Source: Puniceicoccaceae bacterium
GTDB lineage: Bacteria > Verrucomicrobiota > Verrucomicrobiia > Opitutales > JAFGAQ01
Direction: 5' to 3'
DNA length: 64,000 bases
Assembly: GCA_028285755.1 (NCBI GenBank)
Contig: JANQOQ010000008.1
Location: 193,399 to 257,398 of the forward strand
Shown: one piece after another, positions 20,321 to 38,663 of the stretch
How positions within the stretch are numbered: the first letter of the stretch is position 1
Layout of the letters: each line of letters begins with the position of its first letter
Notes under the pieces: model-generated
Seen by the model: the letters and a program-made list of their open reading frames with translations, nothing else
The model's database searches: none
Told to the model about the DNA's origin: nothing
Position numbers and translations under genes: made by a program

Positions 20321-20397
20321 TGCAGGGTGGAGCAGCCCGGTAGCTCGTCAGGCTCATAACCTGAAGGTCCTCGGTTCAAATCCGAGCCCTGCACCCA
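20321..20397 (+). tRNA. tRNA-Met (anticodon CAT), initiator-like
   Basis: Hand-folded cloverleaf: TGCAGGG TG GAGC AGCCCGGTA GCTC G TCAGG CTCATAA CCTGA AGGTC CTCGG TTCAAAT CCGAG CCCTGCA C CCA. It is close to E. coli tRNA-fMet (from memory) in the D arm (A11:U24) and T arm. However, it has U1:A72 and only two of the three G:C pairs at the base of the anticodon stem, so initiator versus elongator/Ile2 is unresolved. Confidence 0.92.
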
Positions 20398-20439
20398 ATT
20401 TCTCAAGGCCTTAGCACCCGCTAAGGCCTTTTTTATTAA
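20351..20439 (+). repeat. attL-type direct repeat (3' 47 nt of tRNA-Met plus terminator)
   Basis: Identical to 38575-38663 except for one mismatch (T at 20403 versus C at 38627). The offset is a constant 18224 nt. Confidence 0.95.
20405..20434 (+). terminator. Rho-independent terminator of the tRNA gene (inside the att repeat)
   Basis: AAGGCCTTAGC-ACCC-GCTAAGGCCTT forms an 11-bp stem and is followed by TTTTTT. Confidence 0.75.
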
Positions 20440-20523
20440 GTATTTACGGGATTTTCTTTGATTTCAGAATTTGCTCTTCAAAATGTTGAACATTCTCGAA
20501 CATTCCTGCATTTTCGTGAACTA

Positions 20524-20546
20524 AAACCAAACTTTTCACCAAACCT
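20524..20546 (+). repeat. 23-nt arm repeat AAACCAAACTTTTCACCAAACCT (left arm copy)
   Basis: Perfect direct copy of 38506-38528. It lies 85 bp inside attL, and the other copy lies 46 bp inside attR. It is a candidate arm-type integrase or Xis binding site. Confidence 0.6.
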
Positions 20547-20612
20547 TTTTAACTCAAAACACCCTCAAATCCCTTTAGGTATCAGCCTGAAGGCCATTTA
20601 AGGCAAAACCTT

Positions 20613-21320
20613 CTAAATCTTTTTAATCTTTTGTTCATCAAGGTTTTTTTCCAATATGCTTGTAAAACCTCTCCAAAATTCCTTGCTGTCTTTTTCTATT
20701 ACAGTCTCAAGTGTTAACTGAGCCTGAATTGCGTATGCCACAAATTCCTCAACTCTTGATTCCCTGCTAAGATGTTCTAGGGATTTCTTTAATTTCTGTA
20801 TTGTGAATTTTTGGGGTTTTTGGTCATGCGCAAATGATGCGTTGATATCAGAAACACACTGTTTTACGGCAGTAATTAAGGACTTTTCTCTGGATATTTC
20901 ACTTAAGAAATAGTTAGTTGAATTTACCAAATTCTGCTGTGCAACTAGAACAGCTAAGATAAATGTTGGTATGGAAACTAATAGAGTATCCGAAATATTC
21001 CATTCATTTCTATTTCCTAAATAAAGCAGAACGGGAATAGATATGCCGGCAATAATCACAAGAAAACCTGTGATGTGCACTAAAGCTTTAAAGGACTCTA
21101 ATTTGAGATTCCATGTATTTCCTGATTTTCCTGATCTCCATTTCAATAACTCCAAGATAGAAGAGAATAGCAAGCCTGACAAAAAAACCCAGGCAATCAT
21201 ATGATATACAATATCAAATGCGTTTATAGACCATTCTGGATAATCGAGCTTTTTGGAAAGCAAGAAGTTGATGAAAATTATTATAAATAGTAGTGAAGCT
21301 ATTTTTTTGGTAAGGAACAT
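20613..21320 (-). CDS. Island membrane protein (about 4 TM helices plus a charged helical C-terminal domain), unknown function
   Basis: 235-aa ORF. Hydrophobic segments are IASLLFIIIFINFLL, MIAWVFLSGLLFSSIL, ALVHITGFLVIIAGISIPVLLYL and LLVSIPTFILAVLVA, followed by a soluble tail of about 95 aa. It is co-directional with, and 63 bp downstream of, the HTH gene. Confidence 0.6.
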   Translation of the reverse strand: MFLTKKIASLLFIIIFINFLLSKKLDYPEWSINAFDIVYHMIAWVFLSGLLFSSILELLKWRSGKSGNTWNLKLESFKALVHITGFLVIIAGISIPVLLYLGNRNEWNISDTLLVSIPTFILAVLVAQQNLVNSTNYFLSEISREKSLITAVKQCVSDINASFAHDQKPQKFTIQKLKKSLEHLSRESRVEEFVAYAIQAQLTLETVIEKDSKEFWRGFTSILEKNLDEQKIKKI

Positions 21321-21383
21321 TCTATATAATTTTACTTGAAAGCTGTTGTATGATTTTTACCAAAAGACTACAACTTATATGAC

Positions 21384-21680
21384 TTAGAGATTTTTTTGAG
21401 CTAGAAATTCTATGTCTTCAAGCCTATAACGATAAGTATTGGGTAGTATCTCAACTGAACTAAGAATACCATCTTTTTTCATCTTCCAAAGCGTCCCGCG
21501 ACTTACGCCAAGCATCTTAGCAGCATCCTTTTGAGTCAGTAATAGCACTTCACGACCACCAGATGCCTTCATTGAAATCCTGCCGGCGATCAAATCTTCA
21601 AGCACCGCCTTATCAACAAAAGACAAGCTCTCATCCGTTTCACGGATTGTTCTTAGCAAGCTGATACTGGTCTTATTCAT
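21384..21680 (-). CDS. Excisionase/AlpA/MerR-type helix-turn-helix DNA-binding protein
   Basis: 98-aa ORF. LLTQKDAAKMLGVSRGTLWKMKKDGIL ... YRYRLEDIEFL is the HTH_17/excisionase-family pattern. Confidence 0.7.
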   Translation of the reverse strand: MNKTSISLLRTIRETDESLSFVDKAVLEDLIAGRISMKASGGREVLLLTQKDAAKMLGVSRGTLWKMKKDGILSSVEILPNTYRYRLEDIEFLAQKNL

Positions 21681-21901
21681 TGTTCCTCACACAGTATATG
21701 CGCGAGAAACCATCAAATATCCCAAGATTTTTTTGCAAAAAATCCATACAAGCTACCATGGCCATTAAGTATAGACTCTAATTTGTATCTTTGTTTTCTG
21801 GCGAGTGAGTCTTGTTAGAAACATTTCTTATCGATTGCGTCGATATAGCGTAATATTTCATGATATGTCTTAAAGATTTCAGTAAGTAATTAGAGTTTAC
21901 G

Positions 21902-36935: not shown

Positions 36936-36975
36936 GTGGTGAAATTTGGAGTAGGAACGTGGTGAATTTTGGAGT
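36936..36975 (+). repeat. Two 17-nt direct repeats GTGGTGAA(A/T)TTTGGAGT, 23-nt period
   Basis: The copies lie at 36936-36952 and 36959-36975 and differ at one position. The core TGGTGAAAtTTTGG resembles the reverse complement of the 23-nt arm repeat (TTGGTGAAAAGTTTGG). Confidence 0.5.
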
Positions 36976-37000
36976 CAAAAATTGCCTGTTTGTTGCCTTT

Positions 37001-37076
37001 AATCTGTACAAATTGTAAATTGAATTGCCAATCTGTACGAATTACGATCTTACGGTCTGTTACGTTTTAATCTGTA
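37001..37076 (+). repeat. Three copies of AATCTGTA in the ATPase-integrase intergenic region
   Basis: AATCTGTA occurs at 37001-37008, 37030-37037 and 37069-37076 (spacings 29 and 39 nt). Confidence 0.4.
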
Positions 37077-37137
37077 AGTTGCTCATGGATAACGGTTTGG
37101 GCGATTGGGTAGTGAAAAGCCGTATTTCAAGCAATAC

Positions 37138-38445
37138 TCAAATTGCTGATAAAATTTCGTCTCGAATGTTCTGCCAATTCTCAGGGGTCATGGCTGTCAA
37201 TTTGTCCTTTATTGCCTCATGAGACATCTTTGTCGTGTTTAATGATCCAACCATTGATGAGGGTAGGTTTGTTGAGAGAGCCTTTCTGAAATCTTCGGCG
37301 CCAGGCTGAAAATAGTGCTTCTGGACAATTTGTGTTGTTCGGTGTCCGGTAACTCTCTGAACCAGCTCTATAGGAACCCCTGATGATAGGGCGATAGTGA
37401 CCCAAGTAACGCGGAAGGAATGAAAGTCTCTTACAGAAGCTCTTCTTAAGCCTTGCTCGCGTTCTTTGCTTAGCTCGCTACCTTTTTCTGCATCTGAAAA
37501 ACCCGCTTGCTCCAGAACCTTCTTAACGCGGTAGGTAATGCCGTCAGGATTAATCTCATACATGCGTGCTTGTTCAGGAAAGACGTATTTGGACTCGCGG
37601 CTTGAATGTTGAGCCAGAACCTCTTCAAGCATCGGGAAAATCGGTATCTGAACGCTTTCACCCGTTTTGGAGGTTTTCACTTGGATGAAACCCTTATCCA
37701 AATCAACCGATTTCCATTCAAGGAGGCAGCAATCGCCACGGCGCATAGCGGTGCAGATACCTGCTTTTATGATCGGCTCAATAAAAGGATCTGTCTGGCT
37801 TGCTTCAACGATGATTGAAATTTCTTCCGAGTTGAAGGGTTTGCGGAACTCCGTTTCTTCAATCTTCGTAGGTATACCTTCAAATGGGTTCTCAACAAGC
37901 CCCGCTTCCTTCCTAAGAGCTTCAAAGCATGATCTCAGGAATATGAGCTTGTTGTTGTAAGTCTTCGGTGAAATACCTCTGGCTTCTTCATTTTCAAGAA
38001 ATGCTCTCACCATGCCCGGCTGAATATCGGAAGCAAGTTTGACCTTGGGATAGGCCTTGCGGATAAACTCTAAAAAGCGATCAAAGTTAGATTTACTGAT
38101 AACTGTGTATCGTTCTGAGAGCTTTCGTTTGCGTGGAAGCCTTACCCATGCATCAAACATCTTCTTCAATGCGAGTGTCCGAATGCGCTCGCCCGTTCTG
38201 ATCTCATGGACAGTTTGAACCAATTCCTCAGCGGTGGTTCGGGATTTAATATCCTTCTGCAGTTTTTCGAGTGCAACCTGAGCGCGTGTGCGTGAACGCT
38301 CAAATAAAGGGTCGCCCAAATCTCTCAATGACTTGGGTGGTGTCCCCTGAATTTTTACACCTAGATTCTTGCAGATAGAGCGATCATCAAAATTGACGCG
38401 GCCATACCACCATTGACTTTTGGGAAGACGTAATTCGAGTGCCAT
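37138..38445 (-). CDS. Tyrosine-type integrase adjacent to attR (probable island integrase for tRNA-Met)
   Basis: 435-aa ORF with catalytic residues ICTAMRRGDCCLLEW (R), FHSFRVTWVT (H-x-x-R), VTGHRTTQIVQKHYF (H ... Y). It lies 130 nt from the right att repeat. Confidence 0.9.
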   Translation of the reverse strand: MALELRLPKSQWWYGRVNFDDRSICKNLGVKIQGTPPKSLRDLGDPLFERSRTRAQVALEKLQKDIKSRTTAEELVQTVHEIRTGERIRTLALKKMFDAWVRLPRKRKLSERYTVISKSNFDRFLEFIRKAYPKVKLASDIQPGMVRAFLENEEARGISPKTYNNKLIFLRSCFEALRKEAGLVENPFEGIPTKIEETEFRKPFNSEEISIIVEASQTDPFIEPIIKAGICTAMRRGDCCLLEWKSVDLDKGFIQVKTSKTGESVQIPIFPMLEEVLAQHSSRESKYVFPEQARMYEINPDGITYRVKKVLEQAGFSDAEKGSELSKEREQGLRRASVRDFHSFRVTWVTIALSSGVPIELVQRVTGHRTTQIVQKHYFQPGAEDFRKALSTNLPSSMVGSLNTTKMSHEAIKDKLTAMTPENWQNIRDEILSAI

Positions 38446-38505
38446 AGATGTGAGGGTTGAACTTCAGTGAACATCTATAAACATGCAAAATATGATAAAA
38501 ACGTC

Positions 38506-38528
38506 AAACCAAACTTTTCACCAAACCT
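38506..38528 (+). repeat. 23-nt arm repeat AAACCAAACTTTTCACCAAACCT (right arm copy, between int and attR)
   Basis: Perfect direct copy of 20524-20546. Confidence 0.6.
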
Positions 38529-38574
38529 AATAAAATTAGCACTTAAGTCGTTGATTATAAACACTTGGTCTTTG

Positions 38575-38663
38575 GGCTCATAACCTGAAGGTCCTCGGTT
38601 CAAATCCGAGCCCTGCACCCAATTTCCCAAGGCCTTAGCACCCGCTAAGGCCTTTTTTATTAA
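38575..38663 (+). repeat. attR-type direct repeat containing a displaced tRNA-Met 3' fragment (38575-38621)
   Basis: GGCTCATAACCTGAAGGTCCTCGGTTCAAATCCGAGCCCTGCACCCA plus a terminator copy. There is no 5' half of the tRNA upstream of it. Confidence 0.95.

Follow-up and report, generated by a model that had tools for sequence, protein, structure and literature searches.

The stretch of DNA analyzed here (the window) comprises 64,000 nucleotides of a Puniceicoccaceae genome (contig JANQOQ010000008.1, positions 193,399 to 257,398). The segment 20440-38663 of the window, 18,224 bp in size, is likely to be a composite integrative mobilizable element (IME) with defence cargo, located in an initiator-type tRNA-Met gene and bearing two further units, the module of a second integrase (int2) and a 3.8 kb cassette enclosed by two inverted sites. 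This cassette (27175-30965) contained only a SIR2-STAND gene and the gene of a 182-aa recombinase. We give slightly less than an even chance to the wider proposal that such cassettes form an undescribed, widespread class of self-contained modules, in which a Xer-related recombinase of ~185 aa, reduced to the catalytic domain, and two inverted lox-like sites of 25-27 bp package variable anti-phage genes, phase-varying or shuffling them.

The island was bounded by an 89-nt direct repeat, with the left copy (attL) at 20351-20439 and the right copy (attR) at 38575-38663, both on the plus strand. A repeat finder and direct reading returned exactly the coordinates and the sole mismatch, T20403 versus C38627, that an earlier inspection of the window without database searches (the sequence-only reading) had given. 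The only tRNA gene detected by ARAGORN in the window, an intact tRNA-Met(CAT) at 20321-20397 (plus strand), occupied the left junction. The repeat started 4 nt 5' of the anticodon, ran to the CCA and continued for 42 nt covering a GC-rich hairpin and a T-run, so that the description of a tRNA 3' part followed by a terminator was correct; attR corresponded to the displaced tRNA 3' half with its terminator. The tRNA gene shared 89.6% identity over 76 nt with an E. coli tRNA-Met gene that occurs in four places of a genome (median). Four copies presumably fit the initiator tRNA-Met, and we take the label "initiator-like" to be reasonable on that ground. The GC content was 0.37-0.45 between the repeats versus 0.47-0.50 in the flanks, in agreement with the AT-richness of the island noticed by eye.

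The 435-aa tyrosine integrase int1 (37138-38445, minus strand; Pfam Phage_integrase) lay 129 bp from attR, and thus does adjoin the right repeat as had been claimed. More than 1,500 homologues were found, with names from Opitutaceae, Termitidicoccus, Nibricoccus and Lacunisphaera. The contexts of three of them, 55-60% identical to int1, were fetched (Opitutaceae TAV5, CP007053; Termitidicoccus mucosus, CP109796; a metagenome contig from ENA). All three showed, on the strand opposite to the integrase and approximately 140 bp upstream of its start, a partial tRNA-Met 3' half beginning at the identical GGCTCATAACC breakpoint and continuing into a terminator hairpin, and a complete tRNA was present in none of the three contexts. 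The recurrence of the same half and the same breakpoint indicates that integrase and repeat belong together, and the geometry of an integrase beside a tRNA-Met half appears, from these comparisons, to be a property of the int1 family. The sequence-only reading had raised against itself that the repeat might be a duplicated tRNA locus unrelated to the integrase; this explanation was checked and is excluded by the half site and breakpoint shared by the three homologues. Beyond the homologous integrases, on the side opposite to the tRNA half, genes of BREX (PglZ, BrxL) or AbiE, Fic and HipA genes were found, and the int1 family seems to be a recurrent carrier of defence cargo in Opitutaceae. The cargo of BREX (PglZ, BrxL) or AbiE/Fic/HipA/YobI type was located at 12656-17290 of the TAV5 locus (L088) and at 11558-17394 of the T. 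mucosus locus (L090).

The open reading frames (ORFs) of the island were searched with Pfam, NCBIfam, PADLOC and PHROGs. Pfam confirmed the presence of a NikA/MobC-like relaxase accessory protein (33911-34366, plus strand; NikA-like, E=1.5e-15) and of a MobA/VirD2-family relaxase (34366-35529, plus strand; Relaxase, E=7.2e-23). No coupling protein, type IV secretion system (T4SS) or capsid family was matched by any of the island ORFs scanned with the four collections, as the sequence-only reading had anticipated. Close to attL, an AlpA/Xis-like HTH_17 protein (21384-21680, minus strand; E=2.4e-8, with matches to PHROG excisionase families) is a candidate excisionase or regulator. The intergenic region 33630-33910, in front of the NikA-like gene, contained repeats with GTGCGCAC (repeat family D3, confirmed by reading) and is a candidate origin of transfer (oriT). 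The copies of this family, 25-nt direct repeats at 33523-33547 and 33720-33744 with GTGCGCAC palindromes, were observed between int2 and the NikA-like gene; they are candidates for an oriT or for relaxosome binding sites.

The att repeats, the position of the integrase, the relaxase without detected transfer machinery, the defence cargo and the drop in GC content together fit an integrative mobilizable element, and support the earlier view of a mobilizable defence island dependent on a helper conjugative element. We propose that Int1 would have inserted the element into the 3' half of tRNA-Met, the att stretch extending from the anticodon loop to the terminator; integration would restore an intact tRNA at attL and leave the displaced 3' half at attR. 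Int1, probably aided by the AlpA-like protein, would recombine the 89-nt repeats to give a circle with a predicted attP junction ..CACTTGGTCTTTG + 89-nt repeat + GTATTTACGGG.. (the sequence after the repeat being also given as GTATTTACGGGATTTTC..) and a repaired attB predicted to read ..GGTAGCTCGTCA + repeat + TTTACAAAGTTCTAGAGCG... The NikA-like protein and the relaxase would then nick the oriT, probably within 33630-33910, and transfer would take place through the coupling protein and T4SS of a helper element.

It is improbable, in our estimation, that the island is instead a fixed and decaying remnant of one Int1 integration, having lost excision and mobilization and keeping its recombinases as relics. 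Several observations weigh against a mobile element and could be read this way. Neither an empty tRNA-Met site, a second copy, a circular form nor transfer was observed. The five window proteins that an exact look-up located in a collection of 15 billion proteins were all singletons at 90% identity, and the best homologues of the porin-like gene adjoining attR, the nearest available for a flank, were 54% identical proteins of Opitutales metagenome-assembled genomes (MAGs) in unrelated, non-syntenic contexts. These look-ups point to a host that is probably an unsampled member of the Opitutales (Verrucomicrobiota). A gene-poor stretch of 750 bp (26424-27174), an ORF with a weak HTH_32 match, possibly left over from a transposase-type gene, and the overlap of int2 with the putative Xis ORF might also be signs of decay. 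A remnant agrees poorly, in contrast, with repeats that differ at just one position, with a GC content that is still clearly foreign, and with the state of Int1, int2, the relaxase, the NikA-like protein and the small recombinase, all of which were full-length with intact Pfam domains. A Logan contig of the same strain (L001, from run SRR20820731) was 100% identical to the window from 20410 to 33614; its ends fell within the 89-nt repeat and within the tRNA-Ala fragment described below, as expected of sequences that are repeated in the genome.

The second tyrosine integrase, int2, has 348 aa (32481-33527, plus strand; Pfam, PHROGs), and its annotated start was overlapped by an HTH_17 excisionase-like ORF (32314-32628, plus strand; E=1.9e-6, PHROG excisionase), which bears out the claim of a second integrase with its own Xis. 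At 33585-33629 (minus strand), 58 bp past the int2 stop codon, we found a 45-nt fragment resembling the 3' half of a tRNA-Ala(GGC) gene, from the anticodon loop (CTGGCAG, anticodon GGC) to the CCA. It shared 86% identity over 43 nt with the tRNA-Ala genes of E. coli (BLAST) and was single-copy in the window; Rfam did not recognize the partial tRNA-Ala. We read int2, the excisionase-like ORF and the single tRNA-Ala half, a second att-type site, as the putative integration module of a second element in an attP-like form. The possession of its own tRNA-Ala half beside int2 supports a mosaic origin of the island. The earlier suggestion of at least two or three assembled modules gains from this fragment, and from the fact that the small recombinase belongs to a self-contained cassette found again in unrelated genomes.

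The nested cassette was delimited by two 27-nt sites, which constituted the longest inverted repeat of the island. Site A, TGAAACAGAT-TCGGGGA-TTCTGTTTCA (27175-27201), is located 9 nt past the stop codon of the SIR2-STAND gene, and site B, TGAAACAGAA-TCCCCGA-TTCTGTTTCA (30939-30965), 25 nt upstream of the recombinase ATG. Both were recovered by inverted-repeat search and by pattern search, in which a degenerate pattern matched twice in the window (A and B) and never in 100 shuffles. Each site was a near-perfect palindrome with 10-bp arms, its asymmetry being confined to the 7-bp spacer, and the spacers of A and B were exact reverse complements. The cassette cargo, on the minus strand at 27210-30269, is a 1019-aa protein made of a SIR2_2 domain, an nSTAND5 NTPase and TPR repeats (Pfam). 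This order of domains resembles that of Avs (antiviral STAND) proteins, which have an N-terminal effector, a STAND NTPase and a C-terminal TPR-like sensor; none of the PADLOC Avs models matched the protein, and the PADLOC matches (ThsA, Dsr2) were SIR2-domain models covering the SIR2 part only.

The recombinase gene (30365-30913, minus strand) starts with the ATG at 30913, since the database copy (P0001) has 182 aa at 100% identity, while the longest ORF would give 213 aa. The protein matched Pfam Phage_integrase (PF00589, E=2.4e-19) and belongs to a family of 3,418 proteins at E<=1e-10, whose closest members were all of ~185 aa. In the alignment A1, R44, K69, R131, H154 and Y163 were invariant, and the "His II" position was occupied by the nearly invariant K128; the catalytic positions were assigned by the Xer motifs. 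The AlphaFold2 model (pLDDT 84) had TM-scores of 0.72-0.74 to the catalytic domains of XerA and XerH in Foldseek. Profile and fold comparisons grouped the recombinase with the catalytic domains of XerA, XerC-like proteins, XerD, XerH and the P2 and HP1 integrases, and revealed no replacement for the N-terminal core-binding domain. The FimB/FimE invertase models gave 32.6 bits (NF007371) and 25.9 bits (NF007370), against cut-offs of 222 and 221, so that the protein is not a member of these families. The small "invertase-like" recombinase of the sequence-only reading is a catalytic-domain-only tyrosine recombinase, with 182 residues and not the 213 of the longest ORF. It is not of integron type either, as the integron integrase model TIGR02249 reached 40 bits for a cut-off of 265 and the sites are inverted, 25-27 nt long and present as one pair per recombinase.

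A survey limited to one genome per species yielded 80 loci with a recombinase of this family, in Verrucomicrobiota and Alphaproteobacteria. Sites were sought with the consensus GAA(A/C)CAGAAT-N5-ATTCTG(G/T)TTC, 20-100 bp upstream of the recombinase gene with a partner downstream, and this arrangement was present at 38 of the 80 loci. All 36 pairs that could be scored matched better in the inverted than in the direct register (direct, 0). The distance between the sites varied from approximately 0.67 kb, where the recombinase was alone (eight loci), to 9.7 kb, corresponding to a cargo of none to 9 kb. At the alphaproteobacterial loci the sites were 96-100% identical versus 64-79% for the recombinase genes (DNA), and similarity ended at the recombinase stop codon, to return only over the 27-35 bp of the distal site. 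Three Verrucomicrobial loci (L012, L013 and L094) had identical 29-bp sites including the spacer, with recombinase genes 65-67% identical and unrelated cargo. Natural spacer variants of the family included TCCCCGA, TCACGCA, TTGCGTA and GCTGT. The recognizable cargo was all of defence type: TIR (two cases), SIR2, HNH, DUF2971 and DACNV-DAC proteins, an MmeI-type restriction-modification enzyme, an AAA_16-TPR STAND protein, an LmuB-like SMC ATPase and a DndB-like protein. The rest of the cargo proteins had no family match. Recombinase homologues without recognized sites were also found in Bacteroidota, and approximately six distant relatives on viral contigs had no recognizable sites. Full-text literature searching, including the site sequences, found no description of the module; the library was incomplete, which makes this weak evidence of novelty.

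At the Verrucomicrobial loci the module was preceded by genes for a TraG-like coupling protein and a DUF6082 protein and by a divergent, conserved ORF of 62-89 aa; this context locates it within conjugative or mobilizable backbones. The DUF6082-like gene and the small ORF always preceded the recombinase-side site (L247 4244-4921, L240 4246-4939, L094 5144-5970). The small ORF (MKITKIIGENG...CPAAILA...FVRMPRATFEKIARQVL) is divergent from the recombinase gene and may encode an accessory or directionality factor. One island of a Verrucomicrobiales MAG (JAQGOU010000222; L002/L004, 9952-11279 and 16310-16336) held two recombinases of the family together with MobA, a TraG-like protein and a P4-type integrase. 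A 164-aa cargo gene stood between the inverted sites of the first recombinase, whose pair was complete; for the second, the fetched DNA included the upstream site only. Modules also co-occurred in other genomes, L025 and L055 on contig DASXFU010000002, and L009, L010, L013 and L015 in MAG DASZCA01. Some co-resident modules had different spacers (GCTGT versus GAGGC), a difference that would bar recombination between them; L010 and L015 shared one spacer. In the window, the cassette flanks (a 146-aa ORF, a 255-aa ORF and the 750-bp stretch) had no homology to the flanks of other loci; the 146-aa ORF showed a faint N-terminal likeness to the conserved 62-89-aa ORF.

In at least eight metagenomic relatives, the Rhizomicrobium ilvA-like and M48 peptidase genes that elsewhere surround a module were 12-300 bp apart, without a recombinase gene. 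By this comparison the module is inserted DNA. Recombinase-mediated integration into a pre-existing site at the ilvA/M48 locus was considered and rejected, the empty loci containing neither a site nor a half-site. Two Rhizomicrobium MAGs (L046 and L065) carried the module plus extra DNA at this spot, beside a degenerate duplicate of the ilvA 3' end. At L046, a 47-bp direct repeat (9744-9790 and 11483-11530) flanks the module, which is preceded at 9787-9870 by a degenerate copy of the last ~85 bp of the ilvA-like gene; the repeat and the duplicate suggest successive site-specific insertions at the ilvA 3' end.

The layout of the sites would allow the following reaction. Recombinase dimers would bind the arms of each site, bring the two sites into synapsis and exchange strands in the spacer. 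Between inverted sites this would invert the 3.7-kb interior and never excise it; inversion being the only intramolecular product, the cassette could not delete itself. The predicted junctions of the inverted cassette are ..GATAGCGA + site + GTATTATCGAAATG.., ..ATTATTGATAGCGA-TGAAACAGATTCGGGGATTCTGTTTCA-GTATTATCGAAATG.. and ..GTCTCAATAAAGTTGACA-TGAAACAGAATCCCCGATTCTGTTTCA-GCTATGATAACATCC... Inverted sites would also permit a swap with a compatible cassette by double crossover. Both inversion isomers were present among the loci. A conserved variant outer arm, AAATTGTTC, was on the cargo side in 12 loci. Most alphaproteobacterial modules combined this placement with a perfect palindrome next to the recombinase; in L027 and L045 the two were exchanged, exactly what one crossover in the spacer would yield. 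L046 and L065 shared approximately 16 kb of flanking synteny with the module in opposite orientations and with different cargo, and homologous neighbours were found on opposite sides of the module in L047 as compared with L025, L026, L048 and L030. What the loci show directly is the layout, its conservation and the company of sites, recombinase and defence genes throughout the family; inversion and its purpose are inferred. We prefer the reading that inversion would switch how the cassette is connected transcriptionally to its flanks. This fits the tight placement of site B, with the recombinase gene on one side and on the other the outward-reading 146-aa ORF, which starts 4 nt outside the site.

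A number of observations weigh against an active inversion switch. The "His II" catalytic position is a nearly invariant lysine in the recombinase family. The Logan contig ran unbroken over both window sites, with no sign of frequent inversion, and among nearly 100% identical contigs listed from different samples the orientation was uniform (P0090, 10 of 10; P0086, 7 of 7; P0036, 5 of 5). Verrucomicrobial relatives keep the conserved left-flank genes always on the recombinase side. A consensus promoter scan around the cassette found 12 candidates for 11.3 expected, which is chance level. The cargo was convergent with the recombinase in approximately half of the modules, which argues against a single external promoter switch. 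Finally, the absence of a lox-like site or half-site from the eight empty Rhizomicrobium loci means that the arrival of the cassette is not explained by its own sites.

Alternatively, the sites may serve cassette exchange, the resident cassette being swapped with an incoming compatible one by two crossovers (a natural recombinase-mediated cassette exchange, as proposed for pdif modules) and inversion being a harmless side reaction. We regard this as rather unlikely. It would account well for the identical sites and spacers of L012, L013 and L094 around unrelated cargo beside recombinase genes of only 65-67% identity, for the range of cargo sizes, for the occupation of the same Rhizomicrobium locus by different cargo, and for the placement of modules beside TraG-like genes within backbones of integrative conjugative elements or IMEs; different spacers within a genome, as in L025 and L055 on one contig, would stop cross-recombination. 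Exchange should however move the recombinase together with the cargo, yet between L046 and L065 the recombinase had diverged about as far as the flanks (65% against 68-75%). No recent event, that is near-identical recombinase genes with different cargo, was found, and the empty loci offered no landing site. It is very improbable that the 27-nt palindromes are operators or terminators, bound for regulation by the recombinase or another protein or acting as RNA hairpins, and not recombination sites at all. Each site can indeed form a hairpin, site A follows a stop codon by 9 nt, a start codon comes shortly after site B, and the assemblies contained no orientation polymorphism. But a T-run follows neither site, and a hairpin needs no loop that is the reverse complement of its partner's, the match seen in 36 of 36 pairs. 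Inverted arms around an asymmetric spacer are the layout of simple tyrosine-recombinase sites, and the variant arm occurred at the recombinase end of some modules and at the cargo end of others, the result to be expected of one inversion.

As an element, the island resembles known IMEs and tRNA-targeting islands in its integration into a tRNA 3' half with regeneration of the tRNA, its direct repeats, its integrase beside one att site, its relaxase and accessory protein without detected T4SS, and its defence and toxin-antitoxin cargo. It differs from them by the 89-nt identity segment that includes the terminator, by the initiator-type tRNA-Met target, by the extra integrase with a tRNA-Ala att-type fragment and by the nested recombinase cassette. 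The cassette itself has partial counterparts among several recombination systems. As in Cre/loxP and FLP/FRT, each site has two inverted arms and a short asymmetric spacer that gives it an orientation, and on the yeast 2-micron plasmid the FLP gene is likewise enclosed by two inverted FRT sites; for a recombinase gene so placed the predicted reaction is inversion. The 182-aa recombinase is however reduced to the catalytic domain whereas Cre has 343 aa with a core-binding domain; the arms are of 10-11 bp and the spacers of 5-7 bp, the modules are chromosomal or IME-borne and carry defence cargo, and the sites have no sequence similarity to lox or FRT, being lox-like by layout and by prediction. 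FimB and FimE are likewise tyrosine recombinases of ~200 aa without the canonical N-terminal domain, acting on a segment between short inverted repeats, but their NCBIfam models gave only 26-33 bits here against cut-offs of ~220, and the fimS switch comprises 314 bp of promoter DNA and excludes the recombinase genes, whereas here the recombinase and whole defence genes are inside.

Hin shares with the cassette a recombinase gene inside its own invertible segment and inverted sites of ~26 bp. Hin, Gin, Cin and Pin are nevertheless serine recombinases requiring an enhancer and Fis, and their segments carry a promoter or the ends of tail-fibre genes, not immunity genes. The pdif modules of Acinetobacter plasmids are also discrete and variable cargo between two inverted recombinase sites, but those are XerC/XerD sites served by the chromosomal recombinases of the host, whereas here every module encodes the enzyme itself and its sites do not resemble dif. 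Cassettes of sedentary chromosomal integrons carry anti-phage genes (bioRxiv 10.1101/2024.07.02.601686), and thus also associate a tyrosine recombinase with small, variable and often single-gene defence cargo. Integrons differ in having one IntI and arrays of directly oriented attC hairpins, in place of one recombinase per cassette and two inverted sites of double-stranded type. The chemistry predicted for the cassette would thus be ordinary, tyrosine recombination at lox-like sites; the apparently unusual feature is the packaging of a minimal recombinase with defence genes inside its own inverted sites.

Family matches also upheld the rest of the cargo listed by the sequence-only reading, and the island is predicted to carry anti-phage and addiction genes: a Mokosh-like SF1 helicase, a PIN/AbrB pair, the SIR2-STAND-TPR protein and a DUF4143 ATPase. 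The 1078-aa helicase (21902-25138, plus strand; Pfam AAA_11 and AAA_12) matched the PADLOC Mokosh model MkoC (E=2.4e-62) at model positions 438-950 of 1136 only. MkoC of Mokosh type II is a helicase fused to a PLD-type nuclease, and the window protein resembles the helicase part; Pfam detected no nuclease domain in its residues 1-380. The PIN toxin (25792-26190) and the MazE/AbrB antitoxin (26190-26423) are both on the minus strand (Pfam). The ATPase (35659-36867, plus strand) combines AAA_14 and DUF4143 (Pfam) and corresponds to the PADLOC candidate system PDC-S01 (E=8e-93). Two adjacent long imperfect palindromes, 35530-35590 and 35580-35638, are situated between the relaxase stop codon and this gene. 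The ORF at 25373-25759 (plus strand), with a weak homeodomain-like HTH_32 match (Pfam, 21 bits, below cut-off) and a weak match to PADLOC RTasHEPN, is probably a remnant, possibly of transposase type. Between the AbrB gene and site A, the 750 bp of 26424-27174 contained no convincing ORF and several terminator-like hairpins, for instance at 27067-27084, and could represent either the remains of a gene or a regulatory region flanking the cassette on the outside. The 235-aa ORF at 20613-21320 and the 255-aa ORF at 31423-32190 (both minus strand) had no match in the four collections, and the 146-aa ORF that reads away from the cassette (30969-31409, plus strand) had no family match.

Taken by itself, the island is an ordinary though well-preserved example of the travel of defence genes. 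It adds an initiator-tRNA-Met-specific integrase family of Opitutaceae that is found repeatedly with defence cargo (BREX, AbiE, HipA, SIR2-STAND, a Mokosh-like helicase). If the interpretation of the cassette is true, these modules would be the smallest Cre-like pairs of recombinase and site known so far, and their natural spacer variants would be orthogonal. The nested cassette matters more than the island, since recombinase genes in defence islands are usually written off as prophage debris, and here the site layout is conserved, the sites are better kept than the recombinase gene and the immunity cargo is variable over at least two phyla. Given an active enzyme, the cassette would be a concrete way to switch or exchange single defence genes, and its very compact recombinase, short sites and several spacer classes found in nature would be attractive for genome engineering.

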